Part shown: one piece after another, positions 5,612 to 62,140 of the stretch
How positions within the stretch are numbered: position 1 is the first letter of the stretch
How the letters are laid out: each line of letters begins with the position of its first letter
Origin: a virus
Direction: 5' to 3' (one strand)
Length of the DNA stretch: 64,000 bases
Virus record (IMG/VR): IMGVR_UViG_3300036828_000755
Span: 1-64,000 of that record
Made by a program: the position numbers and the translations under genes
Notes under the pieces: model-generated
The model's input: only the letters and a program-made list of their open reading frames with translations
Databases searched by the model: none
What the model was told of the DNA's origin: nothing

Positions 5612-6493
5612 ATGTCAACAGAAACGAAAGTCCTAGAACCAGAAAAAGAAACCGCCCTTGTGGAGCAAGACCAGGGGCAAGGGGTGGCCACCACGAAGGC
5701 ACCAACCACGGACATGTTCCAGGAGGACGCGGGCGGGGGCCTGGCCAACATTGGGTCGGCCGACTTCGCCATACCGTTCATACAGATCCTCCAGAAGGGA
5801 AGTCCGCAGGTAAGCAGGGCAAACGCCAAGTACATCAAGGGCGCAGCAGCCGGCATGATAATCAACACCGTCACAGGCAAGGTCGTGCCAGGCGAGCCAG
5901 ACGACAAGGATAGGCCGACGGGCATCCTGTTCATACCCTGCGGATACCAGAGCCAGCTCGTTCGCTGGAAGCCGAGGGACTCGGGCGGCGGGTTGGTCTG
6001 CCACTACAAGGAAGGTGACCCCGAATTGAAGAAGTTCAAGAGGAACGAGAGGGGCCAGCTGCTCGCCGACAACGGCGACCTCATCATCGACACGTCGTAC
6101 CACTTTGGCCTCGCACTCGACGAAGAACTCGGGTTTCCCGAGTACGCCGTCATCTCGATGGCGTCGACCCAGCGAAAGAAGTCCAGGACGTGGAACACCA
6201 TCATGCGGCGAATCATGTTCAAGAATTCACGAACTGGCGAAATATTCAACCCGCCGTCGTACAGCCACGCGTACAGGCTCACGACTGTCGGGGAAACGAA
6301 GGATACCTACGACTGGTATGGGTGGGCAATAGTCTCAGAGGGACAGTTGCAGGACGTCAACCTCTACAAGATGGCGAAGGAGTTCTCGCAGCAGGTAGCC
6401 TCCGGGAACGTCAAGGTGTCGGCGCCGCCGAACGAGTTCGAGTCGGAGGGGGTGGATGCGCCGCACCCCAACGGGGACGACATACCGTTCTAG
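5612..6493 (+). CDS. Single-stranded DNA binding/annealing-like protein
   Basis: IPFIQILQKGSPQV core and an acidic C-terminal tail ending DDIPF, the typical SSB tail; located in the replication cluster. Confidence 0.65.
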   Translation: MSTETKVLEPEKETALVEQDQGQGVATTKAPTTDMFQEDAGGGLANIGSADFAIPFIQILQKGSPQVSRANAKYIKGAAAGMIINTVTGKVVPGEPDDKDRPTGILFIPCGYQSQLVRWKPRDSGGGLVCHYKEGDPELKKFKRNERGQLLADNGDLIIDTSYHFGLALDEELGFPEYAVISMASTQRKKSRTWNTIMRRIMFKNSRTGEIFNPPSYSHAYRLTTVGETKDTYDWYGWAIVSEGQLQDVNLYKMAKEFSQQVASGNVKVSAPPNEFESEGVDAPHPNGDDIPF

Positions 6494-6516
6494 CGATCTT
6501 TTCAATCCCGATCAGC

Positions 6517-6559
6517 GGCAGGACCCCAACTAGACCTGGGGTCTTGCCCACGTATTTTT
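6517..6559 (+). terminator. Intrinsic terminator candidate
   Basis: GGCAGGACCCCA / TGGGGTCTTGCC 12-bp stem (one G:U), 8-nt loop, TTTTT at 6555-6559. Confidence 0.65.
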
Positions 6560-6575
6560 CGAGGAAAGAGATTGA

Positions 6576-8105
6576 ATGGATCGGCCAGCAACCGCCATAT
6601 TGGCCGAGAGGTTCATGCGACTCTTTGACGGCATGAGCCTGGCCTACGGTACGTACAACGTCAATGCTACCAGGGAAGACGGGAAGAGGGTCGGTGATGC
6701 TAGCACGGTGAGGGGGAAGGTTACCCACGAGCTCTGGGACAGGCACCTGACTGGGAAGCAGGGCTTGGGGGTCATCCCCATCAAGGAAGACAACACCTGC
6801 TCATTCGGCGCGATAGACGTCGACATCTACAACCTAGACCACAGGATGATAGCCTCCAAGATCAAGAGGCTCGGGTTGCCACTTGTCCCTTGCCGCACCA
6901 AGTCTGGTGGGGCGCACATCTACTGCTTCACGCAAGTTCCCGTGGCCGCTGCCAAGATGAAGTCCAAGCTGAGCGAGGTGGCGTCGTTCCTGGGCTTTGG
7001 CGGTCAGGAGATATTCCCCAAGCAGGCGCACATACTGGTTGACCAGGGCGACGTTGGCCAGTGGATCAACATGCCATACTTCAACGGCGTGAGGGGCATG
7101 CGGTACGCGATAACGGTGGAGGGCAACGCGCTCTCGGCCGACGACTTCGTCGGCTACGCGTACGAGAACCTTGCCACTGAAAGCTGGTTCAACGAGCTGC
7201 TCGTGATCGTGCAGGAGTTCGAGGAAGGCCCTCCCTGTCTCCAGGCACTGGCCCAGGTCGGCTATCCCAGTGGCACCCGCAACGACGGGTTGTACAACAT
7301 CGGCGTATTCCTGAAGCGGTCCAAGCCAGACAGCTGGGGGACCGACATCTTCGACTTCAACACCAAGTACATGCAGCCGCCGCTCACGAGTCCCGAAGTA
7401 CAGGGGGTCGTCAAGTCGCTGCGCAAGAAGGACTACGCGTACGCTTGCACGAAGCAGCCGATAGCCCAGCACTGCAACTCCGCGCTGTGCAGGACCAGGA
7501 AGTTCGGCGTGGGCAGCGGTACCACTGGTAGGTTCCCGATGCTCGGCGGACTGACCAAGCTGAACACCAAGCCGCCCATGTGGTTCTGGACGGTCGAGGG
7601 AGTCAGGATGGAGCTGACCACCCAGGACCTCCAGGACCCGCGGGCATTCCAGCGGCGGTGCATGGACTACCTCAACACCATGCCGCAGCTCCCCGGGGCG
7701 CCGGTGTGGCAGGCCGCGGTCCAGCACGCGATGGACACGGTGAACATCATAGAGGCCCCGGCGGACGCCTCGTCTGAGGGGCAGTTCTGGGAGATGGTGG
7801 AGAAGTTCTGCACTGGCAGGGCCCAGGCGATGTCGCTCGACGAGATAGTGTCTGGCAAGCCGTTCTCCGACAAGGGCAAGACATACTTCAGGATGGAGAG
7901 CTTGCTCTCGTTCCTGGGCAGGTACAAGTTCTACGAGTTCAAGAGCATCAAGGTTGCCTCGATGCTGAAGGACTACGGTGCCGAGCACCACTTCGACAGC
8001 CTCAAGGGCCGGGGAGTGAACTACTGGTCTATCAGGGAGTTCGCCAAGCAGACCGAGGGATTCGACGTCCCTGGCTCGGTCAAGGAAGGTGGGGACTCGT
8101 TCTGA
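6576..8105 (+). CDS. Archaeo-eukaryotic-type primase (prim-pol) with PriCT-like domain
   Basis: GAIDVD (DxD), RTKSGGAH, GQWINMPY, then PPCL...GTRNDGLY and Cys residues typical of PriCT regions. Confidence 0.8.
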   Translation: MDRPATAILAERFMRLFDGMSLAYGTYNVNATREDGKRVGDASTVRGKVTHELWDRHLTGKQGLGVIPIKEDNTCSFGAIDVDIYNLDHRMIASKIKRLGLPLVPCRTKSGGAHIYCFTQVPVAAAKMKSKLSEVASFLGFGGQEIFPKQAHILVDQGDVGQWINMPYFNGVRGMRYAITVEGNALSADDFVGYAYENLATESWFNELLVIVQEFEEGPPCLQALAQVGYPSGTRNDGLYNIGVFLKRSKPDSWGTDIFDFNTKYMQPPLTSPEVQGVVKSLRKKDYAYACTKQPIAQHCNSALCRTRKFGVGSGTTGRFPMLGGLTKLNTKPPMWFWTVEGVRMELTTQDLQDPRAFQRRCMDYLNTMPQLPGAPVWQAAVQHAMDTVNIIEAPADASSEGQFWEMVEKFCTGRAQAMSLDEIVSGKPFSDKGKTYFRMESLLSFLGRYKFYEFKSIKVASMLKDYGAEHHFDSLKGRGVNYWSIREFAKQTEGFDVPGSVKEGGDSF

Positions 8106-10082: not shown

Positions 10083-12434
10083 GTGGAAGCACCAGGAGAA
10101 TTCCCATTCAAGACGCAGCCATATAAGCATCAGCTAGATGCCTGGAGGATTTGCAAGGATAGGGAAGCGTACGCCCTGTTCATGGAGATGGGCTGCGTCG
10201 ACGGCGACTCGACGATTTCCTTGAACTGGTTTGGAAATTCCAGCAACAAGACGCTGAGGGAATTGCACGATCGAGGAGTGCAGCCAAGGAGGCAAGTTAG
10301 GTCTGGCAGGTGCGCCGCAACTCGGTCATTCGTCGAAGGCTCATTTCGACTAAACGAGATCCTCTCAATAGCGGACGTTGGTCAGAAGGAGTCGGTCACC
10401 CTGACGCTAGCTTCCGGGAGAACGATCGCGGTAACCCCCGAACACGAAATCCTTACCACGGAAGGTTGGGCGTGTGCCGCAGCAATCCCCATTGGCGCAG
10501 AAATACTAACGAACATCTCAAAAGAAGAATGGGACGAGCGAAAACGTTCCATAAGAATTCCGCCAATTCCCCCGTGCGCCTTGTGCGGAAACCCAGACAG
10601 CATCAGGACGAGGAAGTCGAAGTATTTCGGGTGGTGCAGATCCTGCACGATGATGTACGTGTCGAAGAACTCGGAAGGTTGGACAATCGACAAGGATGGG
10701 TACATCAGGGTTGGCGGACACAAGGATCATCCCCGTTGTTCAACTTCAGGACAAGTCCTCGAACACATACTCGTGATGGAGAAGAAGTTAGGGAGATACC
10801 TTGCGCCAGACGAGCGAGTACACCACCATGATAGGAACCCGAAGAACAACGAACCTGAAAACCTAGAACTTCGAACTGCTGCAACCCACCACGAGGACCA
10901 CGAATGGTTCAAGAACCTGAGGCAAGACGTTTTTACCCCAGTTCCTGACACGCTGAAGGCTGCTAAATCAGGAGGCAAGCGCCAGATGTACGACCTCATG
11001 ATGAGGTCCCCAAACAACAGCTTCATCGCCAACGGGATCGTGGTCCACAACTGTGGCAAGAGCAAGGTCATCTGCGACAACGCTGCCTACCTCCACATGG
11101 ACAACAAGATCAAGGGCCAGGTGGTCGTCGCACCCAAGGGGGTGTACATGAACTGGGTAGAGAACGAGTTGCCGGCCCACATGTCCGAGGCCATCAAGCA
11201 CGGGGTTGCCTACTGGTCGTCCACGGCCTCGAAGGACGAGAAGGCCGCAATCAAGAAACTCTACCAAGAAGGCGATTTCTTGCGGACCCTGGTCGTCAAC
11301 GTGGAGGCGCTGAACACCGAGAGGGCCGCGAACGAGGTCGTCAACTTCATGCAAAAGTTCCCGAGCATGATCACCGTGGACGAGTCGACGACCATCAAGA
11401 ACCCCGACGCCAAGCGGACCAAGATCCTCATCAACGTCGGCAAGTACGCGAAGTACCGGAGGATCTGCACCGGGAACCCGATCCCAAACGGCCCGCTCGA
11501 CCTGTACAGCCAGGCGGAATTCCTGAAGCAAAACCAGCTGGGGTTCGCCAACTACTACGCCTTCAGGAACAGGTTCGCGGTGATGCAGGACCAGAAGCTC
11601 GGGAGCCGGTCGTTCAAGAAGGTCGTCGGGTACAGGGAGCAGGACCTCCTCAAAAGGCTGATGAGGCAGTTCTCCTACATCATCAAGAAGGAGGACTGCC
11701 TCGACCTACCTCCCAAGGTCTACCAGGTCGTCGACGTCTCGATGGGCCCCAGGCAGGCCGAGGCCTATAACAAGATGGTCGAGGACGCGTATGTCCTGCT
11801 GAAGGACGGCTCCCAGGTAACGGCGCAGATGGTGATCACGCAACTCCTCAGGCTTCACCAGATCTCGTGCGGCTTCCTGAGGCCGGACGGGATGCCCGAG
11901 GTCCCGTTCGACGAGCCAAACGAGAGGATGGAGGCGCTGCTCAACCTCCTCGACCAGGCCCCGGGCAAGGTCATCGTCTGGGCCAACTACAGGTACAACA
12001 TCAGGCAGATAGTCGCCGGGATCAGCGAGAAGTACGGGAAAGGGACGGTCGTCGAGTACTACGGCGACACCAGCGACGACGATCGCCGGGATGCTAAGAG
12101 GAGTTTCCAGGACCCGGGGTCTCCCGTGAAGTACATGGTCTCGAACCCAGACACAGGCAAGTGGGGGAACACCTGGACACAGGCAACGACGGTCGTCTAC
12201 TACTCCAACAGCTACAACCTCGAGGCGAGGGAGCAGTCCGAGGACAGGGCCCACAGGATAGGGCAGGTCGGGGCCGTGCACGCGGAAGGGTGCGAGCCGT
12301 CCGTGTTGTACGTGGACCTGAAAGCCAGGGGGACGGTCGACGAGCGGATCATCCGCGTCCTAAAGAACAAGAAAAAGCTCACGGACGAGATTGTCACGTC
12401 CAATTGGAGGTGGTTGATTGGCGAGGCCGCCTAG
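10083..12434 (+). CDS. SNF2-family helicase interrupted by an intein
   Basis: PYKHQ; EMG|CGKSK motif I once the intein is removed; VDES; TGNPIPN; LLRLHQI; GNTWT; QSEDRAHRIGQ. Confidence 0.93.
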   Translation: MEAPGEFPFKTQPYKHQLDAWRICKDREAYALFMEMGCVDGDSTISLNWFGNSSNKTLRELHDRGVQPRRQVRSGRCAATRSFVEGSFRLNEILSIADVGQKESVTLTLASGRTIAVTPEHEILTTEGWACAAAIPIGAEILTNISKEEWDERKRSIRIPPIPPCALCGNPDSIRTRKSKYFGWCRSCTMMYVSKNSEGWTIDKDGYIRVGGHKDHPRCSTSGQVLEHILVMEKKLGRYLAPDERVHHHDRNPKNNEPENLELRTAATHHEDHEWFKNLRQDVFTPVPDTLKAAKSGGKRQMYDLMMRSPNNSFIANGIVVHNCGKSKVICDNAAYLHMDNKIKGQVVVAPKGVYMNWVENELPAHMSEAIKHGVAYWSSTASKDEKAAIKKLYQEGDFLRTLVVNVEALNTERAANEVVNFMQKFPSMITVDESTTIKNPDAKRTKILINVGKYAKYRRICTGNPIPNGPLDLYSQAEFLKQNQLGFANYYAFRNRFAVMQDQKLGSRSFKKVVGYREQDLLKRLMRQFSYIIKKEDCLDLPPKVYQVVDVSMGPRQAEAYNKMVEDAYVLLKDGSQVTAQMVITQLLRLHQISCGFLRPDGMPEVPFDEPNERMEALLNLLDQAPGKVIVWANYRYNIRQIVAGISEKYGKGTVVEYYGDTSDDDRRDAKRSFQDPGSPVKYMVSNPDTGKWGNTWTQATTVVYYSNSYNLEAREQSEDRAHRIGQVGAVHAEGCEPSVLYVDLKARGTVDERIIRVLKNKKKLTDEIVTSNWRWLIGEAA
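10194..11051 (+). mobile_element. Intein (286 aa) carrying an HNH endonuclease
   Basis: Starts CVDGDS (Cys1), contains block B TPEHEILT, ends IANGIVVHN followed by +1 Cys. Internal GYIR...EHILVMEKKLGRYL...VHHHDRNPKNNEPENL is an HNH domain. Confidence 0.95.
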
Positions 12435-39838: not shown

Positions 39839-40594
39839 TTAAAACGTGTTCTCTAGGGAAACCTGGACATCTGTCTCGTCTGGTCCGCTGCACGTGAACG
39901 ACAAATCGTCTGACCCATACCTTACCGTAAAACTTTGCCCATCCTCGTCAACGAACGGGAATAGGTACGCCATCCCCCAGTTGGCGATGAAGTGCGACTT
40001 AAGGTTGGCGAACTCAGCATCCCTGAGTCGCTGATAGGAAAGCATCCACCCCATCAAACCGTCTGTAGGATACCCCGAAAGTCCCCCGCCAAATTCTGGG
40101 GAAGTGTACTTGATGCCCGGCCTAGTCTTCGTCACGATTGTCTGGAAATTCTTCTTCTGTGAATAGGGCAGCGTGCTGATGGCCCCGTTCCACAAGACGG
40201 GGAACCGCAGGCCAGCTTGTCCTGGGGAATAGTTCTGCGTAACTGTCTGTGTCAAGCTCAACGGCGCGTCGTAGTACGTGCTCTTGTTTTCGGAACCAAT
40301 GAAGCTGTCAGAGTCAAGGCTCAGGTTGTCGTACGTGTCGGGTCCAAGGGTCAACGTTAGGTCTGTCCCATACTGGCCCAAGGAACCAGTAACGGCATTC
40401 TTGATCACGTTCTTCTGGGCCTGGCTCAGTATGGCGTACGGAAGTTGGAAGCTGAACAACGCAGAAGGCTGGACAACGTACCTCTGCTCGGAACCGTTCT
40501 GGAACCTCCCAATCACGGTCTTAAAAGAGATGGTCATCGTGAACGGGTAAAGGGCCGCGGACGTTCCCCTGATAATTGGCAGTGGTACTGGCAT
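39839..40594 (-). CDS. Distal tail / minor tail protein (DUF2460-like)
   Basis: Directly after the tape measure gene; GSEQRY motif and an internal two-fold repeat. Confidence 0.65.
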   Translation of the reverse strand: MPVPLPIIRGTSAALYPFTMTISFKTVIGRFQNGSEQRYVVQPSALFSFQLPYAILSQAQKNVIKNAVTGSLGQYGTDLTLTLGPDTYDNLSLDSDSFIGSENKSTYYDAPLSLTQTVTQNYSPGQAGLRFPVLWNGAISTLPYSQKKNFQTIVTKTRPGIKYTSPEFGGGLSGYPTDGLMGWMLSYQRLRDAEFANLKSHFIANWGMAYLFPFVDEDGQSFTVRYGSDDLSFTCSGPDETDVQVSLENTF

Positions 40595-40597
40595 GGT

Positions 40598-43500
40598 CTA
40601 CCTCGCTGCCCTCTGGACTTCCCTCGTTAGTAGGCTGTGTCCATCTTGCAAAGATTTAGCCGTCGCAAGCCCAACAGACCTGTTATTCTTCTGCAAATAA
40701 TCGTGGAAGCTGTTCGCGTCAAGCGTATGAACCGTGTAGTTGTTGTTGACCGTTACAGGGGGTTGTGGGGTAGGCGTGCGAGCCCCCGGGTTCACGATGG
40801 AGCCGAACTGGCTAGTCTGACCGCCCGGGACGTCGTAGTAGGTCGGTGGCCCGCCCAACAGCCCGTGCGTTTGCTTCCACACGAATCCCTGCGTGACGAG
40901 CGGGTACGGGCTAAAGTTGGAGGTGCGGAGTTGCCCCTTGACCCCTATGTCGGCGAAGGTCCCGGCAGAACTCGCCGTCACGTTCAAGGCTTGCGGGGCG
41001 AGGTACTGCCTCGCTTGAAGCATGTTGGATATGTCCTGGGCCCTCCTTGCAGGATTATTTATCATGCTACCGACGAGGGACGTCCCCATAGCCACACCAG
41101 CGAGTATCGCCTTTGAGATTGGCTCCGGGTCAATTATGGCGGCAGCCCCCAGCAGTGCCCCGGTTCCCTCGAGAGCTCCCCCAGCGCCGCCCCTCCTGAA
41201 GTCCTTGACTGCCTGGTAGGCCGCTATCCCTGCGGCCGCAACGCTCACGGCTGTGCCTATCGTGTTGGCCTGCGTCACAGCTGGCCTAGGACTGACGGGA
41301 GCAAGCGGTGGAAGTTCTTCTTCACCAGTGTCTATCCCAGGACTCACCGGGGCAAGCGGAGGTAAATCTTCTCCCTGGTATGCGCTAGCAAAGGCAAGTC
41401 CACCTCCACCTCCACCAATCAACGGAGTCCCTGCCAGGGCCCCGGCATTGCCGGAAAGGATTGATGCGTCCTGCCCAGGAAACAACGTTTCTGAACGATC
41501 TTGGTAAGCTTGGTCATCAAAGCTTATCGCAGTCGAGGTAGCAACTCCCCTATCCCCAGGCTGGTACCCAGGAAGCTGTGGATTCATGAACCCGAACTGG
41601 TAAGGCGTTATGGAGGGAGTGCCTCCCCACTCTGGGCCAAGGTTTGGGGGACCAACCCACCCGACCCTCCCACCGCCAAGGGCACCCATTGTCCCGCCAC
41701 TCGAGAGTCCGGGGGTAATTCCCAGGTTCTTCTCCATCTCGAGAAGTCTTGCCGTCAACCTGTTCAAGGCGTCGGTATTCTTGTCGGTGGCCGTGGTATT
41801 TTTCACGGTGACCACGTTCAACTGCGCGTCGATCTCCTCCTTTGTCGGGACCTTGGTGCCGAGCATCGTCCCACTCAGCATCTTCCCAAGCCAGGTGGGG
41901 GTGTGCACCGGATTACCTTGCTTGTCATACGTCACATTTTCCAACCCGGGCAAGAACATCTTGACGTCCTTCAACGTGTCGACCATGAAGTTCCCGAAAA
42001 CCTTGGAACCAAAACTCCTGAACTGGTCAGTCATGAAGCTCTTTATCGCGGGACCACGGTTGTACTGTGAGAAAGCTTGGAAGATTCCCTCGGAGAGGCT
42101 CCTGATCTCCTCGAGGTGCTGCTTGCGAAGGTCAAGCATCTGCTTGAGCTTCTCCATCTCAGCCTCACGAATTTGTTCTTCCTTCGTCTGTTCTGCCTCA
42201 AGTGTCTGGTCCCTGGCCTCGAACTCGGCCTGGATGTTCTTTAGCCGAAGCGTGTGTATGTTCTCGGCCGCAGCCATCTCCTCGTTCTGGCCAACGGCAA
42301 TACCCTGCAAGTATTCAACCCTGCTTTGCGTAACTTCGCCGATAGACTTGGCAAGCCTCTCACGGGCAGTATCGATCTCTTGCTCAACAACCTTTATGCT
42401 GTCGATCGCAGCCCTTGAGTTGGCCTGAGCCATGGCCAAGTCCCTCTGATTCTTCAAGGGGCCCTGACCCTCTATCGTTGTATATTTCTTGCGTTCCTCG
42501 TACGCTTCCTCAATCTCAGCAACCTGAGCTTTTCGGGTTCGCTGGATCTCGTCCAATGCCCTGTAAGCTGGAGACTGTCGCTTGTTAGCCTTAGCACTGA
42601 TCGTGCGATCGATCTGCATCGCAAGGTCTTGGCTGTCCTTGAACATGGCGATGCGCTGTTCAGCATCAGAGCCCAGCAGTTCCTTGTTATACCTCTTAAT
42701 ACCAGTGGTAAGCTCATCGAAGATTGCTACCTGTTCTTCAAGTCTCTTGTTTTCATCCTGGATTCCGCTTGTTGAGTCCATCCGAATCTGGGCTGCCGCA
42801 GTCATTGCATCGACGACGCTTCCGGTAGCTCCAGGTTTATCGAGGAGGTCCTGGGCAGCGATGCTAGCATCCCGAAGCTGTGACTTCTCCAACATCGCCT
42901 GGGTTGCCCGCTTTCTTTCGGTATCAAGTCGAATGATTGCGCTGTCCCTCTCAACTTCATTCGCGACGACCTGCTTATTATAGTCGTCAACATTATTCAA
43001 GAGTTTCAACGTCTTCTTGGCCGTGTTTTCCTTAACAATGTAAACGTCCAATATCGCCTGCTTCTCAGAGGCATAGTTCCCAATCGTGACGTTGGACTGG
43101 ATCTTCTCAATCGCCAGCTGATCCCTGGTCTGCCCAATCTGGGCCTGGGTCATCCTGTTAAGTTTACCAAGTTGGATGTCGCGGTTTTCCACAGCTTTAT
43201 CAGTAACATTCTTCCTGAGTTGGTCAAAATTCTCGAGTCTCTTCCTTCCAAGTTCACCGCCACCCAGCCCGGTAACCATCAGGTCTAGTTGGCGCTTCGC
43301 AACAGGATCATTAGCCTTGGCTCCTGCCTGCACCTCCTTGATCTTTTTTCCTAAAACGTCTATGTTAGCAATTTCTTGCTCATAGTCGAGCATGATCTTC
43401 TCACGAGGACTCCCCATCGACTTACGGGCACGAAGACCAACGTTGCCAAGTTCGCTGTACTTTTCATCAAGCTTATTCAACTTACCCTCGGCCTCAAGCA

Positions 43501-46500
43501 TCTCAGAAATGAATGCCTGGATCTGTGCCCTCTCGGTATTGATGATCAAGACATCGCCCTTTGCTTCTGCTTCACTCGCAGCCTTTTGGAGGTCGCTCTC
43601 CCTCACGATGGCGCCAGGCTTAACGGTGCCACCAGTATAGGCAGAAAACTTCTTCGCGAGTTCTTCCTGACTTTCTTTTTTTCGCTGACCCTCAGATTTC
43701 TTACGAGAAAACGAGCTAAACAACGTCCCAAACATCCCTAGTTCAGGATTCCCCTCAAAACCCGCCAAGAGCGCGCTCAAGACCCCATTCTTTCCCTTAA
43801 TATCTGCGATATACTTATCAAGGGCCTTAACACGGGCGTTATATTCCTCGCCGAGCCTACCTGTGAGATCTTCCTCAAGCACCATCCTGGTGCTTATGTC
43901 AGCTTTTATTTGCTCGAGTAATTGGTTTCTACTAGCCATGGCTTCTGGAGAACCGTCGCCAGAAGACTTACTTAACTTGTCAAAATCTGCAGCTGTTTTC
44001 TTCTTATAAAAATCTACGCGTTCCTTGGAATTGTCGGCGATGTCCTTGGCAGCGTCCTCGTTCATCATACCGTATGCGGCCAGGCCAACGGCTGCTGACG
44101 CAACCTTGAGTGGCAGTGGGATCACGGGTGTTGCCGCAAGAAACCTCATGAAAGAAAACGTGCCTAAGGCGCCCAAGGCTGCTGATATCGCTGTAAGAAC
44201 CTTTGCATACCTTGCCATGGCAGCAGAATTGTCGTCGGCGTACTTCACACCCTTTGACAGCATGCCAACAAACTTCGTAAACTCTGGCAAAAATGCCTTG
44301 CCAACCGAGTACTGCAGCTCAACCACGTTTTGCTCAAAAAGCTTAAGCTGTCCACCGGCCGTCATTAGGGACTTCTCATAAAGTCCATTAGCCTTTGCTC
44401 CCTCAAGGATAACGGCATTGAGCAAAGCTTGACGCTTCTCAACCTCGCTAGCAGGGCCAGTTTTTCCCTCAGCCTTTCGCTCTATGTTTAGCTGACGATT
44501 GACCTGCAACATGCTCACCGGGAGACCCATGCGGTGCAATGTCATGGTTAATCCGGTTGAGATGCCGGTAATGAGCCTCTCAGCTGCCTCAGACGGTGTT
44601 TGACCTGTGATTACCGAAACATTCTGAGCAACCTTGGCTAGCTGACCAGCCTTGCCAACATCAAGTTGCGCAAATATCATCTTCTGGACAAGCTGATTAG
44701 CAGACTCAGTTGTCATATTGAGCTTCTTAACGTTCTGGACGCTCCCCATCACGGCGTCAACGTCAAGCGCATTTATCTTGGCTATTTCCTTAGTAGAAAA
44801 CACCAGCGTGTCAACCTGCGCAGCATAGGTCGCCATCTGCTTAACGCCAGCAAAAACGGCTGACCCAGCCGACGCCAACATCGATGCCCCGACCCCAAAC
44901 CCGAGGTATCCTTCCCTGGAGCCAAACGCCCGACCACCACCGCCGCCACCACCCGCGCCACCGCCGGGCCCGCCCCCGCCAGGACCACCACCCCTGGCAT
45001 CCTCTGACTTGACGTACCTTACCTTTGCCTCGTACTCTTTTCTGTAAGCTGTCTGCCTCTTCTTACTCTGGTCTTCTTCCTTCTTATTTATGTCCATCTG
45101 GATCTTGGTAGAAGTCCCAGCAAACTTCCTCTCGTTGTCTATCCTAGCCTGGTCAGCCTTTTCCCTGGCCGCGGCCCTCCTCTTCTCGATCAAGCCTATC
45201 TGATTATCGATCTGCTCCTCAGCCGCGACCCGACCCTCGCCAACATCCGAAATCTTCGACTTGGCCCTCTCCTCGAGCGTACGACCACCGAGCATCGTGT
45301 AGTATCTTTTCTCATACTGCTGCCTGGCTTCTTCCAACTCAGCCGAACCACCGTACATAGCCCTCGCTGCTGCGGTCGAGGTCTGCCTTCGAAGAGTCTC
45401 CAACTTATCGAACTTGGGAAATGGCCCTTCCTGCCCCGGCTCAAGTCCCCAGTCACCGGGAGACAACCGACTTGCCTCACTCCTGTACCTAGCCCTTATC
45501 ATCCTAAGCTGAGGGTCACGAATCGAACTCTCCAATCTTTCTTGTATGTCCGCATCAGTAAGCCCGAGCCTTTTCTTGGAAGCACGAAGTTTTCTCCCAA
45601 GACGACCCTGGGCCTTTACCGCGTCGCTGTAGCGCTTCTCTGCATCTAGCTCAGCAAAAGCTAGGTTAGTCGTCCTCTCCTCGTAGGTGCCCTGGATTCC
45701 CTCGAGGCGACCTCGTGCGATTCGTGTGATAGCAGCCCGGCGAGCTTGCAGCCTGGATACCTGGGCATCGAACGAGGCCTCAGTCCCAGCTAAGCCTAAT
45801 CCTAGCGCAGATTCCCTGGACCCACGACGCCTCGCGGCTTCCTCCATCTTTGCCTTAGCAGTAACATCCCTGAATTCGTTTAGTTTACGGGCAGCAGCAT
45901 CAACGGCGTCGGCCAGGTTCTTGAGCCTTGACTGAAGAGCATCGTACCTCATCTGCGCCCGAGGATCATCAGCACTTGGCGGTCCAAAGGGCGCTCCCCT
46001 GTTTACCCTAGACTCGGCCGACTCTGGCGGCTCGAGGGGGTGGCGACCAGCCTTCGTTCGATCCCGCATCTCCTTGATTTTCCGGTACAAGGGATACAGT
46101 CCAAAGGACATGAAGTCAAGGTTACCAAACCCAGCCTCACTACCACCCCTCCCACCCCCAAGGTCGCCCATCCCCCTCAATGCCTCACCAATGAGGTTTC
46201 GGTGGGCACGGGGTTGGAAACTGGCACCGGTGGCCCCCGAGAAGAAATCCCTCTGTGCTTGGGCAATCTTCGCAGCCGCTAGGCGCCTACCGATTACTTG
46301 TCCCTCGGTCATTATCGAGGTAAGTCCCCTGAACCTGGGGTCCTCGAAACCGACCTGGTTAGCCATCTGCGCAGCCGGGCGAATAGCTAACATGGCTGGC
46401 TTTTCCCGATATCTACTAATGAACGAAGCGATCGCTTTTTGACTATATGGGGGAGCCGCGCGCTGCGCCCACGGCGAACTCAGCATGCTGGCAAATTCTG

Positions 46501-48103
46501 CCCGCAGATCCTCTTTCTTCCCTCTGTCAGCTGCCTCGAACTGGGCCATTTCCCGAGCAATCCCGAAACCAGGTTCTTGCACCTGCCTATAATGCGTGTT
46601 TATTCCCTGCATCAAAGCAAGCGCAAGCTCGTCCCCGTGCCTTATGTCTTCCTTGACTTGGCGACCCCTGCCACGGCCCTGTTGAATTCCTTCCTGATGC
46701 CTGGCTTGCCTCTCGTACTGGGTCAAGAAGGCGGCAGAACTAGCTGGTCCAGACATGATCGCCATGTTCCTGTAGAACGATTCGATCACCCCGATTCGCC
46801 TATCAAGACCAATGGCTGCCGCACCGATTAGTCCAGGGGTTGTTTCGGGAGCAACGCCAGAACCTTTCTTGATACCGTAATCGGTACTACGAGATGGGCG
46901 ACGCGACCTAGCCTCGATGCCGCCCTCTATAGTTGCTATGACGTGCTGCGCATAGACTTCGTGACCCTCATCATCGTAAGCAGCAGCCCTTCTCCTATAC
47001 CTCGCAACAGGAGACATGTATCGCGTCGCACCGCCACCGATCCGACTCTGCAAGTTCTCCAGTATCTCATCTGCCTGTTGCTTAACCGTTGCCAATATCT
47101 GCTGCTGCCTCGTCAACGGCCCCTGGTTGGCGAGCAACTGCGCCATGTATGGCTGCCCACCGAGCGGTGACCTAGATGCAAGAAGTCTGAGCGAACCTCC
47201 CACATCCCCCTGTGTTCGGTGAGCTTGACCAGCATCAATCCCATGAAACCTAATGAGATCCTGAAGAGATCGGGATTCGAAGCCGTGCATCCTCCACGGT
47301 ATTCCCCTCAAAGAATCCATCCAGATCTTTGAAGCCACGTAAGGAACAAGTTGTTGGACGAACTTCTTATCAAAGGGAGCGTTGTGGGCAATGAGGAAGT
47401 CAGCCTTATTGACCAAGTGACGTATCATGGTCGTCGAGATCGCCTGACCCTTGAGCAATTCAGCTGACAGACCTGGAGAAAGAAACTGGTGACGGCCCTG
47501 GTAACTCAGCTGCTGCATCCCCGTGTAGCTCTTCAACACCTTACCAAATTCCCCAGTTTCCTTGTTGAAGGAAAACAGTGTTGCGGTAAGCTCAACAACC
47601 TGATGCTTGAGGGCTTTTAACCCAGTCGTCTCCGTGTCTATGAAGAGTGCTTGGCCCATCACCTTTCCCTTGGTGACAGGGTCATACATCCCTTGCCGAG
47701 TGGCCATCTGCCGCTGTATTAGGGCCCCGTGCTTCTCGAGTTCCCTCCGAAGTGCAGCAGTCCCACTAGTCTCGGCAATCCTGGTAGCAGCAGTCTCCGC
47801 CATCCTCTCCAACCGATACGGCGTGTACCGGTTCAAGACTTGCTGGGCAGTCATCAGGACGCCCGCAGAAGACCCTATGCCAGCCGTCCTCTTCTCGAGT
47901 GCCCTGATGCTTGGCTCAATCCTCTGGATTGCCTCGACTATGTCGCCGACAGATTTGCCAGCAGCAACAGCTCGACGAACAACGCCGTCCAACGACATCG
48001 AGAGTCGGGACGCAAGCTTGTCCGCGTCCTGCATCTCGGCCTTGCCTTGGTTGGTGAAGCGAAGTACTACGCTCAGTATTTCGTCGTCAAACAGTTGCGC
48101 CAT
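40598..48103 (-). CDS. Tape measure protein (2501 aa) with an N-terminal DEDDh exonuclease domain
   Basis: Syntenic position between the tail chaperones and the distal tail gene; long helical Ala/Glu/Lys core; DTETTG/HNAPFD/HRTQGD near the N-terminus. Confidence 0.9.
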   Translation of the reverse strand: MAQLFDDEILSVVLRFTNQGKAEMQDADKLASRLSMSLDGVVRRAVAAGKSVGDIVEAIQRIEPSIRALEKRTAGIGSSAGVLMTAQQVLNRYTPYRLERMAETAATRIAETSGTAALRRELEKHGALIQRQMATRQGMYDPVTKGKVMGQALFIDTETTGLKALKHQVVELTATLFSFNKETGEFGKVLKSYTGMQQLSYQGRHQFLSPGLSAELLKGQAISTTMIRHLVNKADFLIAHNAPFDKKFVQQLVPYVASKIWMDSLRGIPWRMHGFESRSLQDLIRFHGIDAGQAHRTQGDVGGSLRLLASRSPLGGQPYMAQLLANQGPLTRQQQILATVKQQADEILENLQSRIGGGATRYMSPVARYRRRAAAYDDEGHEVYAQHVIATIEGGIEARSRRPSRSTDYGIKKGSGVAPETTPGLIGAAAIGLDRRIGVIESFYRNMAIMSGPASSAAFLTQYERQARHQEGIQQGRGRGRQVKEDIRHGDELALALMQGINTHYRQVQEPGFGIAREMAQFEAADRGKKEDLRAEFASMLSSPWAQRAAPPYSQKAIASFISRYREKPAMLAIRPAAQMANQVGFEDPRFRGLTSIMTEGQVIGRRLAAAKIAQAQRDFFSGATGASFQPRAHRNLIGEALRGMGDLGGGRGGSEAGFGNLDFMSFGLYPLYRKIKEMRDRTKAGRHPLEPPESAESRVNRGAPFGPPSADDPRAQMRYDALQSRLKNLADAVDAAARKLNEFRDVTAKAKMEEAARRRGSRESALGLGLAGTEASFDAQVSRLQARRAAITRIARGRLEGIQGTYEERTTNLAFAELDAEKRYSDAVKAQGRLGRKLRASKKRLGLTDADIQERLESSIRDPQLRMIRARYRSEASRLSPGDWGLEPGQEGPFPKFDKLETLRRQTSTAAARAMYGGSAELEEARQQYEKRYYTMLGGRTLEERAKSKISDVGEGRVAAEEQIDNQIGLIEKRRAAAREKADQARIDNERKFAGTSTKIQMDINKKEEDQSKKRQTAYRKEYEAKVRYVKSEDARGGGPGGGGPGGGAGGGGGGGRAFGSREGYLGFGVGASMLASAGSAVFAGVKQMATYAAQVDTLVFSTKEIAKINALDVDAVMGSVQNVKKLNMTTESANQLVQKMIFAQLDVGKAGQLAKVAQNVSVITGQTPSEAAERLITGISTGLTMTLHRMGLPVSMLQVNRQLNIERKAEGKTGPASEVEKRQALLNAVILEGAKANGLYEKSLMTAGGQLKLFEQNVVELQYSVGKAFLPEFTKFVGMLSKGVKYADDNSAAMARYAKVLTAISAALGALGTFSFMRFLAATPVIPLPLKVASAAVGLAAYGMMNEDAAKDIADNSKERVDFYKKKTAADFDKLSKSSGDGSPEAMASRNQLLEQIKADISTRMVLEEDLTGRLGEEYNARVKALDKYIADIKGKNGVLSALLAGFEGNPELGMFGTLFSSFSRKKSEGQRKKESQEELAKKFSAYTGGTVKPGAIVRESDLQKAASEAEAKGDVLIINTERAQIQAFISEMLEAEGKLNKLDEKYSELGNVGLRARKSMGSPREKIMLDYEQEIANIDVLGKKIKEVQAGAKANDPVAKRQLDLMVTGLGGGELGRKRLENFDQLRKNVTDKAVENRDIQLGKLNRMTQAQIGQTRDQLAIEKIQSNVTIGNYASEKQAILDVYIVKENTAKKTLKLLNNVDDYNKQVVANEVERDSAIIRLDTERKRATQAMLEKSQLRDASIAAQDLLDKPGATGSVVDAMTAAAQIRMDSTSGIQDENKRLEEQVAIFDELTTGIKRYNKELLGSDAEQRIAMFKDSQDLAMQIDRTISAKANKRQSPAYRALDEIQRTRKAQVAEIEEAYEERKKYTTIEGQGPLKNQRDLAMAQANSRAAIDSIKVVEQEIDTARERLAKSIGEVTQSRVEYLQGIAVGQNEEMAAAENIHTLRLKNIQAEFEARDQTLEAEQTKEEQIREAEMEKLKQMLDLRKQHLEEIRSLSEGIFQAFSQYNRGPAIKSFMTDQFRSFGSKVFGNFMVDTLKDVKMFLPGLENVTYDKQGNPVHTPTWLGKMLSGTMLGTKVPTKEEIDAQLNVVTVKNTTATDKNTDALNRLTARLLEMEKNLGITPGLSSGGTMGALGGGRVGWVGPPNLGPEWGGTPSITPYQFGFMNPQLPGYQPGDRGVATSTAISFDDQAYQDRSETLFPGQDASILSGNAGALAGTPLIGGGGGGLAFASAYQGEDLPPLAPVSPGIDTGEEELPPLAPVSPRPAVTQANTIGTAVSVAAAGIAAYQAVKDFRRGGAGGALEGTGALLGAAAIIDPEPISKAILAGVAMGTSLVGSMINNPARRAQDISNMLQARQYLAPQALNVTASSAGTFADIGVKGQLRTSNFSPYPLVTQGFVWKQTHGLLGGPPTYYDVPGGQTSQFGSIVNPGARTPTPQPPVTVNNNYTVHTLDANSFHDYLQKNNRSVGLATAKSLQDGHSLLTREVQRAAR
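47170..47659 (-). other. DEDDh (DnaQ/RNase T-like) 3'-5' exonuclease domain within the tape measure protein
   Basis: Exo I D156/E158 (FIDTETTG), Exo II D245 (IAHNAPFD), Exo III H295/D300 (AHRTQGD). Confidence 0.9.
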
Positions 48104-48109
48104 CTCTAA

Positions 48110-48574
48110 TTACCGACGTCCTTTTGTTTGGGATTGGGACTGCTGTTGGCGAGGGACTTCCCTGATAGAGGCCGACTGCAGAGCATCGACCCTCGCCTGT
48201 TCATCTTGGAGGAGCACGAACGCATCTACGATGCGGGACGGCCATTGCAAAAGATCCCCGCCGTAGGGAGCCGCGCCGAACTCCTTCATTATCTTGGTTC
48301 GCGCGAAAAGTTGTATCAACTCCGTAGACTTAGTTGATATGAGTGAGACAGGGCACTCGCTAGTTTCGGTGCCTGAGATGTTGAACGGACGACCGTGGTG
48401 GTCGTGGTATCCTGCTTCCCAGCATGACGCCCTCTTCGGGTCTACATGGTCTGGGAAATAGGTATTACAATTTCTTTGTTGCCAGTATCCCCTTCGCTTA
48501 CACCGTCCACAATCGAAGACTTCTGACTCATGTCCGCCGGTGCGCCAGAAATGGTAGGCGATGGTGAGTTTTTT
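48110..48574 (-). CDS. Tail assembly chaperone, -1 frame extension (gpT-like)
   Basis: The -1 frame is open from the slippery site through the 48110-48319 ORF: KLTIAYHFWRTGGHESEVFDCGRCKRRG...ECPVSL...ELIQLFAR...KGRR*. Confidence 0.8.
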   Translation of the reverse strand, partial: KKLTIAYHFWRTGGHESEVFDCGRCKRRGYWQQRNCNTYFPDHVDPKRASCWEAGYHDHHGRPFNISGTETSECPVSLISTKSTELIQLFARTKIMKEFGAAPYGGDLLQWPSRIVDAFVLLQDEQARVDALQSASIREVPRQQQSQSQTKGRR

Positions 48575-56271: not shown

Positions 56272-57414
56272 TTATGGAACGTACTTCACACGGTTGCCGT
56301 CAGCCGGGTCATACCAAAGCTGTTTCGATCCGGCCGCCGGAGCCACTGATGGCAGTGCTGAAACTGCCAGCGTCGGCGTGGTCAGTGCTGGGCCGGTGTC
56401 ATCCGGCGTACCGATGGTGCAATGGCCGCTATAGTCGATGATCAGCCGATTGGTTTCGTTTCCGCTGGTTCTGAACCAAATCCCGCTGCCCCCGCGTCCA
56501 GTGATTATGAGGTCGCTGCAATAGAGGCGAAACGATGACAGTCCACCGTTGATCGTGGCGCAGTGGACCACGTTGTTCGTCATGACCAGGTCATCCACCA
56601 AAGTCAGCGATGCTCCCGCGTCATCGGTGGCCCCGATGGTGCAGTGCCCTGCGGAATCGATTGACAATCGCTGTGTTGGCGTGCTTCCAGTCAACAAAGA
56701 CAGACTGCCGGATGTAGTAAAGAGGTTGTGACCCGCCGCATCAATGTCGAAAGACCACGGCGTTTGCGTGGCTGGGTTTCCCTGCAATCCTTGTGGTCCG
56801 GTTAAACCCTGGGCACCGGTTGGACCTGTTGCTCCGGGTGCGCCATCGGCGCCGGGAACGCCCTGCGGTCCGCTGCTGCCAGCAGGACCAGCAACACCCT
56901 GCGGTCCCTGCGATCCGGTTGCTCCGGTTAAGCCCTGCGGCCCAGCCAGGCCCTGCGGCCCGGGTGGTCCCTGGATGTTGCCCGCATCCGTCCACGTCGT
57001 GTTCCAGACCCAAATGTGGTCCGTGTCCTGCGTGATGTAAGCGTCGCCGGCATTGGCTGATGCGGGCAGATCCGCATGCGTCGGCACGCTGCCAAGCAGC
57101 TTGATGCCGGTGCCGGGAGTGCCTTGCGGACCGGGAGTGCCTTGCGGACCGACGGCTCCGGTTGAACCGGGAGGGCCTTGCGGTCCCTGTGTTCCGGGCG
57201 ATCCCTGCAAACCCTGCGGCCCCTGCATTCCGGGAGGCCCCGAGGAACCGGTGGGACCAGCTGGGCCTGGTGCTCCCTGCGGACCGGGCGGTCCCGGTGG
57301 TCCGGCTAAGCTGGCTTGGCTGATTCCCACGGAAAACTGCACCTTGGGTACAATAGTAGCAGAAAATGTCTGGCCAAGAACTACGGGAGCAGGAGATTTT
57401 TCGGTAGGAGTCAA
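56272..57414 (-). CDS. Collagen-like (Gly-X-Y) fibre protein
   Basis: Two GPP/GPQ triplet tracts split by a GDAY...WVW...W domain; the C-terminus has the QTPW and PDD modules of the tail fibres. TTG start after GAGGT (the track start is 57429). Confidence 0.82.
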
Positions 57415-57418
57415 GGGT

Positions 57419-57829
57419 TTACCTCGCAATCAATGCCGCTGTTTTTGGGGAATTAAGCGGCACGCGGACAGAACCTGGGGCCAACCTTGCGGCAGCCGAC
57501 CTAGTTATGTCCTTGGTCACCTGCACAGTACCAGCCAGCAAGGTCGTGACCCACGAGTTGGCGTCCATAATCTGAAGATCCCAAACATATGTTGCCTGGT
57601 TCAAGTTAAGCGTCACGTTGTGCGTCAGGACCATCGTGATGGTATTCCCAACAATGCTGCACTGGAATTGCGCAGCCACGATGGAGTTGGAATCAGCAGG
57701 GCCTAGGCGAACCTGTGACTGGGCGACGTACCCAGTCAAGTCAGCGACTGTGCCGTCCGTATTCAGGACGGTGACCGTTGCTATGAAGTCATCGCCCTGG
57801 TAAATTTCAAGGTTCGCTAAGCCAGGCAT
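57419..57829 (-). CDS. BppU-N-like / fibre anchor Ig-like protein
   Basis: LEIYQGDDF...DLTGY...QVR...YVWDLQI...LLAGTV pattern. Confidence 0.7.
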
Positions 57830-60802: not shown

Positions 60803-62140
60803 CTATCTTACCTCCATCAAAAGCTCAGGCGATCCTTCGCCGTTGCCTACCGAACATCCTTCTTGTTCCATGACCTCGGCGTGCATCTTGCTCAACTCCT
60901 CGTTCAAGTCCGTGCGGTACTGCTTATTCGGTATGATCAACTCGTCGAGCAACTCGTACGGCTCGTCGAATGCCTCGTAGCAATCGTCCGCCATCCCAAT
61001 CGCGTCCGCAACCACGCCCGACCCAACAGAATGGACCAGGCCATCACCGTCAGCCATGACCTCGAACAGGTAGAAGCAATCTTCCTTTCCTTCTGGTATC
61101 CCACGGATTGGCACACCAACGTTCGGGCAAACTTTCTCTATGTCCGACAATTTCTTAGCTTCAAGAGGGTATGGGGGGATGGTGACGCGAACAGCTGCAC
61201 CAAACTGGTCTGTCATGTTCACGGCCGAGGCCTGACCCTTGGCAACGTCGGACATGAACTTCCCAACCCCTCCACGGAGCATCTTTATCAAGGTCGGCAT
61301 AGCATCATAGCCGAACCTTGGGGTCCACTCAAGGCCCCACACCCCCTCCCCGTTGACCACGGTGTTCAGGTCCATCGGGCCAACGTACCCGGACTCGACG
61401 ATGAGCCTCTCGGCCCTCAATATCCCCTCACTGATTATCCTGCAAGTCTCGTCGTGCTCGGCCCACACGAGGTTTCCAGCACACCCGGTCGCTTGTCCCA
61501 GCTCCCCGTTCAAGGCTTTCTTGACCTCTACGGTATGGTTCAACGGACGCAAGAAGCGGTTGCCGTCGCACCATGCCTCCGTTGAAACACACACGCCCTC
61601 CTTGAACTCTTGCAAGATGAACGACTCAATTTCCTTCCCAAAATACTTGTCAACGTACTCCGCCCACCTGACCAAGTCGTCGCCATCGTGGGAGCAGTAC
61701 GTCAACGAGCAAGGGAGATCCTTGCCCGAGGGCTTGAAGACGAACCTCTTGCCATCGTCGTGTTCTTCCAGGAACGACCTGACCTCGTCCACGCTGAAGT
61801 CGTCGAACTTCGCCGTGTACGGTACCTTGATCCCGGCCTGCTCCATCAAGTTCAGCCCAAACATCCTGTCCTGCTCAAGCTCATCGGCAAACACCGAGCC
61901 CGCCACGGTCGCGAATCCTTCTTTACGGAGGTTGTCGGCAATGTCTCCCATGCCGGAAAAGTCGAATACCACGACCGTACCTTCTGCGGGCTCGATCTTC
62001 TCTGTCTTGGGTATCAGCCCGTCCCAGACAGAGCGATAGTCGGGCTGGTTGATGTACAGCTCAACCTGGTTTCCCTCCTGCTCAATCTGGTGAAGGAGGT
62101 GCGCGCCCTCCCCGACGTTCGACACCATCAAGAATCTCAT
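60803..62140 (-). CDS. PurD (GAR synthetase)-like ATP-grasp ligase, divergent
   Basis: ELEQDR..G..LM..AGI, FVFKPSG, ILQEF.EG..VS, GELGQATG, LEWTPRFG align with the PurD ATP-grasp motifs. The PurD GREH and GDPE motifs are not conserved. Confidence 0.82.
   Translation of the reverse strand: MRFLMVSNVGEGAHLLHQIEQEGNQVELYINQPDYRSVWDGLIPKTEKIEPAEGTVVVFDFSGMGDIADNLRKEGFATVAGSVFADELEQDRMFGLNLMEQAGIKVPYTAKFDDFSVDEVRSFLEEHDDGKRFVFKPSGKDLPCSLTYCSHDGDDLVRWAEYVDKYFGKEIESFILQEFKEGVCVSTEAWCDGNRFLRPLNHTVEVKKALNGELGQATGCAGNLVWAEHDETCRIISEGILRAERLIVESGYVGPMDLNTVVNGEGVWGLEWTPRFGYDAMPTLIKMLRGGVGKFMSDVAKGQASAVNMTDQFGAAVRVTIPPYPLEAKKLSDIEKVCPNVGVPIRGIPEGKEDCFYLFEVMADGDGLVHSVGSGVVADAIGMADDCYEAFDEPYELLDELIIPNKQYRTDLNEELSKMHAEVMEQEGCSVGNGEGSPELLMEVR

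Follow-up and report, generated by a model that had tools for sequence, protein, structure and literature searches.

Among the enzymatic elements found in phage tape measure proteins (TMPs) are wall-degrading motifs, namely the Rpf-like motifs of mycobacteriophages and the peptidase domain of the T5 protein Pb2. The described system closest to the one considered here is gp96 of the Thermus phage P23-45 (Chaban et al. 2024, PMC10770324): a virion RNA polymerase, responsible for transcription of the pre-early genes, makes up the N-terminal portion of this giant TMP, and the enzyme is proposed to work at the TMP pore on the genome as it comes in. Here we consider the first 64,000 nucleotides (nt) of the IMG/VR record IMGVR_UViG_3300036828_000755 (131.8 kb, soil, CheckV 91%); this whole stretch is referred to as the window. 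On its minus strand it encodes a TMP of 2501 amino acids (aa), and we report that aa 146-332 of this protein are predicted to be a DnaQ-like DEDDh 3'-5' exonuclease with its catalytic residues intact.

The likeness to gp96 concerns both the kind of cargo and its place, since a nucleic-acid enzyme lies in the N-terminal part of a giant TMP in both cases, here ahead of a linker and the TMP core. The differences are that our enzyme is a DEDDh exonuclease and not an RNA polymerase, that the phage lineage is unrelated, and that the system is known from genes alone. Another TMP-like protein with a nuclease cargo is Tme, the TMP-related effector of a contractile injection system (CIS) of Streptomyces davawensis (PMC11126660); there, a C-terminal endonuclease of the HNH/EndA type belongs to a bacterial CIS, whereas here an N-terminal DEDDh exonuclease belongs to a phage. 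In view of these two systems, the statement in the initial annotation that the enzymatic domains of TMPs are peptidoglycan hydrolases is outdated. The wall-degrading TMPs likewise tolerate globular enzymes, but those act on peptidoglycan and lie in the middle of the protein or near the tail tip, while the domain considered here appears to be of the nucleic-acid type and head-proximal.

The polyvalent proteins (Iyer et al. 2017, PMC5512222) share with our case the idea of one injected polypeptide that carries several swappable enzymes into the first moments of invasion. That work names neither TMPs nor DEDD exonucleases, and the hallmark domains of polyvalent proteins (MuF, zincin metallopeptidase, ART and others) were not found by Pfam in the TMP of the window or in nine relatives. 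Full-text literature searches returned no paper on a TMP-DEDDh fusion. The view that such a fusion is undescribed thus holds for the literature; at the same time, the fusion is recurrent in metagenomes, and three of its members have been named automatically by the Joint Genome Institute (JGI) as "DNA polymerase III epsilon subunit-like". What is new is the DEDDh exonuclease as an N-terminal cargo of a TMP; enzyme cargo on a TMP is already known from P23-45.

Concerning the domain itself, profile searches, the predicted fold and the catalytic residues agree. The NCBIfam model NF006615 (PRK09182 3'-5' exonuclease) matches with an E-value of 1.6e-36, although only in part (profile positions 47-225 of 307); its score of 125.7 bits against the curated full-length cut-off of 207 makes the domain a relative of the PRK09182 subfamily and not a member, and, unlike PRK09182, the domain has no counterpart of the C-terminal third of the profile. 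Further matches are phrog_192, "DNA polymerase exonuclease subunit" (E 1.4e-18), and the PADLOC model of the CRISPR-associated DEDDh nuclease (E 1e-15). The Pfam family PF00929 (RNase_T) scores 20 bits for the window copy, under the cut-off of 24, and 16.7 bits in the genome search, where this copy is the sole RNase_T-like match; among the relatives, it matches six of ten at E up to 0.01 (best 4e-7).

AlphaFold2 (AF2), run on a 60-sequence alignment, gave a confidence score (pLDDT) above 90 over approximately aa 150-320 and an RNase H-like alpha/beta fold. Its nearest solved folds are DNA 3'-exonucleases throughout, with Z from 14 to 17.6: the N-terminal domain of Staphylococcus aureus DinG (Z 17.6), the epsilon subunit of Pol III (Z 16.5, root-mean-square deviation 2.4 A over 155 residues), and also a CRISPR DnaQ domain, PolC, ExoI and TREX1/2. 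With these enzymes the TMP domain has in common both the fold and the five catalytic residues. D156, E158, D245, H295 and D300 are invariant in the ten closest TMPs and in the 60-sequence alignment, which includes free-standing relatives; they are also kept in four more distant TMPs of 29-33% overall identity (P0015, P0031, P0047 and P0161). The initial annotation placed an intact DEDDh domain at 47170-47659, i.e., aa 149-311, and this is borne out; the search with hidden Markov models and the structure prediction that it called for both identify a DnaQ-like DEDDh fold.

The same annotation took the methionine at position 149 for the start of a captured stand-alone gene. The Shine-Dalgarno-like string AAGGGAAAGG, followed by TG and the ATG, is indeed present at M149. 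Nevertheless, an internal start at this place is to be rejected: neither the methionine nor the purine run is conserved among the relatives, which have V, T or I there. The homology to free-standing exonucleases begins upstream of M149, at about aa 100-114.

Free-standing exonucleases of phages and mobile genetic elements (200-400 aa) are 35-41% identical to the TMP domain, which differs from them in being embedded in a structural protein, free of cysteine, basic and placed in a separate clade. In phage genomes, the sole matches to the exonuclease region were free-standing "epsilon" genes of phages of Rhizobium and Agrobacterium, with 28-31% identity. One free-standing relative (P0036, L005:8001-8948) belongs to a temperate element, where a cI-like repressor and the integrase flank it; genes that are expressed in the lysogen typically occupy such a position. 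The defence candidate PDC-S48 is matched by free-standing relatives as well. A replicative proofreading subunit was considered as well. This role is unlikely because the PolA of the phage has exonuclease motifs of its own (DxE, NxxxD and YxxxD) and aligns to a PolA structure from residue 26; Pfam PF01612 did not detect this exonuclease region of PolA.

The open reading frame (ORF) in which the domain resides is a genuine TMP of an uncultured long-tailed soil phage, and four independent lines agree on this: the chaperone gene with its frameshift site, the homology of the core, the helical and hydrophobic build, and the conserved gene order. The G/GT pair of tail assembly chaperones with a -1 frameshift is a signature that precedes TMP genes. 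Here the slippery heptamer lies at codon 136 of the chaperone, and the GT-like frameshift product of 290 aa ends at 48110, 7 nt ahead of the TMP start. The heptamer was checked in four related loci (L002, L003, L004 and L006) and has the identical offset in each, which makes five loci with the window.

The second line, the homology of the core (aa 1075-1345), is largely transitive. Its direct match to phrog_28 (TMP) is weak (E 4.7e-5), but the core is homologous to four proteins of 743-896 aa (P0011-P0014; E 1e-10 to 1e-15), and these match many TMP families of PHROGs, with E-values as low as 1e-28. The ORF gave no match to a Pfam TMP family, either as a whole protein or in five pieces; apart from phrog_28, the five pieces gave only chance-level matches to Pfam and PHROGs. 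The protein is mostly helical according to AF2, with hydrophobic windows at about aa 1067-1087 and 1321-1339. As to gene order, seven related contigs share the succession portal, scaffold, capsid, 428-aa tube candidate, chaperone, TMP, DUF2460-like protein and giant hub or fibre protein, and the TMP is the largest ORF of the assembly core of the tail module. The position of the exonuclease within a true TMP, as initially proposed, is thereby confirmed.

Concerning relatives, nine further proteins of 2515-2824 aa are 56-62% identical to the window protein over the exonuclease domain. An exhaustive HMMER search added P0015, P0031, P0035 and P0047; three of these (P0015, P0031 and P0047) were compared directly and belong to the same TMP family at the 29-33% identity already mentioned. 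A search based on the core added P0161, P0162 and P0163, the last being a distant TMP with the core close to its N-terminus. Altogether, the TMP-exonuclease architecture recurs in at least 16 more giant proteins of independent assemblies, and one homologous TMP (P0162) lacks the domain, so that the search for homologues of both kinds proposed in the initial annotation found both. A search of IMG/VR for related loci with aa 1-345 returned no relatives, and none of 50,697 phage genomes gave a tblastn match to the TMP core. The identity of the capsid protein to those of Streptomyces and Gordonia phages amounts to only about 25%, and no close cultured relative was found.

The exonuclease region is the best-conserved stretch of the TMP. 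In a tree of 14 embedded domains and 75 free-standing relatives, the embedded domains group in a single clade (SH-aLRT 99) with one state change, so the domain was captured once; the fusion is single in origin and has been maintained under selection across a deep clade. The embedded domains also differ from their free-standing relatives in composition. They contain no cysteine, against a median of three in 140 free-standing domains, and their isoelectric point (pI) lies between 9.5 and 10.3, whereas the same 140 have a median of 6.7; a near-invariant cysteine of the exonuclease family is replaced by Asp263. The property extends to the whole protein: cysteine is entirely absent from 15 TMPs, in contrast to 0.5-1.4% in other proteins of the window phage. 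Two of the three TMPs found later are also free of cysteine, and the third, P0161, has only two, both in the zinc motif (PCxxC) of a deaminase domain. The tail tube of phage 80alpha is negatively charged (PMC11661146), and the loss of cysteine together with the basic shift would fit a polypeptide that sits in such a tube and crosses the envelope. We consider it plausible that the exonuclease is carried in the virion with the TMP, because the domain is cysteine-free with a pI of about 10, as for a tube-resident polypeptide.

The exonuclease is an optional module. The locus of P0162 (L007:10001-16795) has the same gene order, and the domain is cleanly absent from its TMP, while aa 1-130 and everything beyond aa 332 align. 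The core of P0162 and that of the exonuclease-bearing P0007 share 71% identity, which suggests that P0162 lost the domain secondarily; this identity is the sole basis of the suggestion, and the basal branching of the core tree is not resolved. A second site of insertion follows the position equal to aa 547 of the window TMP. Three relatives (P0002, P0004 and P0009, in the last at L002:11540-12200) carry there a DUF4406 domain, similar to nucleoside 2-deoxyribosyltransferases (E 1.7e-16). P0161 (L008) keeps the exonuclease and has, exactly at the DUF4406 site, a dCMP_cyt_deam_1 domain (aa 563-675; E 3.4e-13). Because of the clean absence in P0162 and of the second enzymes at a fixed site, we regard the first ~1,040 aa as an extension with two cargo slots. 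The window phage apparently fills only the first; its second slot, after ~aa 547 (~46463), is empty. In the predicted structure the exonuclease is the only globular part of this extension, and no further globular domain was predicted within aa 336-1075 (AF2 on an alignment of only five sequences, mean pLDDT 66). The segment aa 1-145, which the exonuclease-less P0162 retains, is a candidate for the head-proximal anchoring end of the TMP.

In phage 80alpha, the DNA end is capped by the tail completion protein, with which the N-termini of the three TMP subunits pair; their C-termini lie in the baseplate (PMC11661146). If the TMP of the window phage is arranged as the same trimer, the leading genome end would have about three copies of the nuclease directly beneath it, some 150 residues from the N-terminus. 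At infection the TMP would exit first, with its extension as the last part to reach the cytoplasm, at the pore of entry; this is what has been proposed for the P23-45 polymerase. The exonuclease could there remove nucleotides from DNA 3' ends, and the entering end of the phage genome would be the favoured substrate since the enzyme is tethered there and this is the nearest DNA. Resection of the 3' strand to a 5' tail could hinder the loading of RecBCD-type nucleases or ready the end for annealing, which is speculative; the target is the weakest step of this explanation. Injection with the genome is probable because a whole clade of related phages keeps the domain intact. Taken together, a TMP-borne exonuclease that is delivered with the genome and trims 3' ends, likeliest at the entering phage end, is the explanation we prefer, and we give it about an even chance.

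Several points weigh against it. The window copy scores under the curated cut-offs of both Pfam and NCBIfam. We infer delivery, activity and substrate for a clade that is represented here by its genes. The domain can be lost, as in P0162, and so is essential neither for tail assembly nor for infecting every host. The characterised relatives of the second-slot domains act on free nucleotides, which would fit a role in nucleotide metabolism or defence at least as well as end trimming. Few copies enter per virion. Moreover, three folded domains of ~21 kDa must fit, or sit unfolded, in the ~4 nm lumen of a siphophage tube.

Of the alternatives, an injected counter-defence effector survives best, although we consider it unlikely. 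The nuclease would be delivered as above, but its targets would be host molecules: single-stranded DNA with a free 3' end (retron msDNA, cDNA of reverse transcriptases, Argonaute guides, CRISPR prespacers) or linear oligonucleotide signals, while the optional domains, DUF4406 and deaminase, would be directed against signals or pools derived from nucleotides. The nucleotide-acting domains of the second slot (DUF4406 and dCMP_cyt_deam_1) speak for it, as do the similarity of the exonuclease to CRISPR-associated DEDDh proteins and to the defence candidate PDC-S48, and the presence or absence of the module (P0162), which is typical of arms-race genes; injected multi-enzyme proteins directed against nucleotides have been published as a concept (PMC5512222, PMC7824862). 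On the other side, this explanation is without a named defence target or host, and only about three membrane-tethered copies per infection would face diffusible targets. The initial annotation listed oligonucleotide defence signals among the possible targets. For cyclic ones this is chemically unlikely: DEDD exonucleases require a free 3' end, and DEDDh enzymes are not known to open cyclic nucleotides.

Somewhat less probable, in our opinion, is an enzyme of the producer cell that is not delivered at all. The TMP, abundant late in infection, would act in the cytoplasm before assembly, for example in the breakdown of host DNA and nucleotide salvage, or the extension would be cut off during assembly. 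An exonuclease accompanied by dCMP deaminase or dNMP-glycosidase-like domains does resemble a salvage pathway, TMPs are often processed (that of 80alpha is fragmented, PMC11661146), and the glycine linker could serve as a cleavage or hinge site. The total loss of cysteine and the pI of about 10 nevertheless indicate constraints of the tube and of translocation and not those of the cytoplasm. Cleavage would also discard the conserved aa 1-145, although the N-termini of the 80alpha TMP anchor at the neck (PMC11661146), and neither a protease site nor an internal start is conserved.

A catalytically silent holder of the DNA end, which would bind the packaged 3' end in the neck without hydrolysis, serving as a plug or as a tow-line by which the DNA is drawn out after the TMP, seems to us improbable. 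DEDDh active sites do bind 3' termini, and the domain lies ~150 aa from an N-terminus that in 80alpha abuts the DNA-end cap (PMC11661146). Mere binding would, however, tolerate substitutions, and the five catalytic residues are invariant across relatives of ~30% identity; besides, P0162 has a homologous TMP without the domain. Finally, we see practically no chance of an artefact, either chimeric assembly or read-through of an independent exonuclease gene into the TMP, which only the purine run and ATG at M149 would favour: these are not conserved, no stop or frame change interrupts the 2501 codons, at least 16 proteins of independent assemblies have the same architecture, and two Logan contigs from two soil runs (which may be the source samples themselves) are identical across the junctions, with no difference over 46600-48400.

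The features of the TMP and of its neighbours are collected in Table 1. The candidate for the major tail protein is named from its position, and no family match to it was obtained in Pfam or PHROGs. The weak DUF2460 match of the candidate distal tail protein is likewise weak or faint in the relatives.

Table 1. Coordinates in the window of the TMP gene, the parts of its product and the adjacent tail genes
Feature	Position	Strand	Remarks
TMP ORF, 2501 aa, 0 Cys	40598..48103	-	Core homologous to P0011-P0014; phrog_28 E 4.7e-5
N-terminal helical segment, aa 1-145	47669..48103	-	Column identity 0.75-0.84; long AF2 helices
Predicted DEDDh (DnaQ-like) 3'-5' exonuclease domain, aa 146-332	47108..47668	-	
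Exo I, D156-x-E158 (FIDTET)	47630..47638	-	Invariant
Exo II, H240-N-A-P-F-D245	47369..47386	-	H240 and D245 invariant
Exo III, H295-x4-D300 (the "h" of DEDDh)	47204..47221	-	Invariant
Helical/disordered N-terminal extension, aa 333-1036	44996..47107	-	AF2: helices or low-confidence coil only
Glycine-rich linker, aa 1037-1060, boundary of cargo extension and TMP core	44924..44995	-	Conserved in 10/10 relatives
TMP core with hydrophobic segments	44069..44923	-	
Coiled ruler part and C-terminal (tip-proximal) region, aa 1346-2501	40601..44068	-	Full-length homology to relatives
Tail assembly chaperone, G-like, 179 aa	48442..48981	-	Directly upstream of TMP; kept in the relatives' loci examined
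Slippery heptamer A AAA AAC (48568-48574) and -1 frame extension	48110..48574	-	
Candidate major tail (tube) protein, 428 aa	49053..50339	-	Position only; 426-430 aa homologue there in 7 related loci examined
Candidate distal tail protein, 251 aa, downstream of TMP	39839..40594	-	Weak DUF2460, E 0.0037

Some observations concern the surroundings of these genes. In a distant relative, a gene for a LAGLIDADG homing endonuclease is inserted between the chaperone and TMP genes (L006:9339-10001). Downstream of the TMP in the window, four consecutive giant ORFs (1278, 2092, 1962 and 3111 aa; 14142-39832, minus strand) together make up a very large fibre or hub apparatus; the 2092-aa ORF combines a pectate-lyase-like N-terminus with a trimerisation domain of the T4 gp34 type. 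Between the portal and scaffold genes lies a gene for a collagen-like repeat protein (56272-57429, minus strand), which matches many PHROGs of the type "tail fiber / collagen-like". Next to the portal gene is that of an ATP-grasp (GARS_A-like) protein of 445 aa (60803-62140, minus strand), which is unusual for a head module and is also present in a relative (L003:1-17). On the plus strand, an SNF2-type helicase gene (10083-12434) is split by an HNH intein, with Intein_splicing and HNH_3 domains between the N-terminus and SNF2. The replication module contains a protein similar to gp34 of Pam3 (E 9e-63) and a primase of the AEP-TOTE type (5612-8105, plus strand), beside PolA and a UvrD helicase.

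TMPs are usually viewed as passive rulers and pore formers, and the polymerase of P23-45 is one experimental case of an enzyme that enters with them. The clade described here would add a different class of enzyme, long fixed at the same N-terminal position, with signs of adaptation to life in the tube and with swappable neighbour domains. If delivered, the exonuclease would act when the infection is most vulnerable, as the first end of the DNA enters and meets RecBCD-type nucleases, CRISPR adaptation and membrane nucleases that track the TMP, such as SNIPE (bioRxiv 10.1101/2025.11.03.685801). We also propose, tentatively and below even odds, that the N-terminal ~1,000 aa of these TMPs are a two-slot cargo bay that injects interchangeable DNA- or nucleotide-processing enzymes ahead of the genomes of soil phages, the TMP being a general vehicle for the delivery of effectors. 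If this is true, the cargo bay would be the phage counterpart of cargo loading in type VI secretion systems and CIS.

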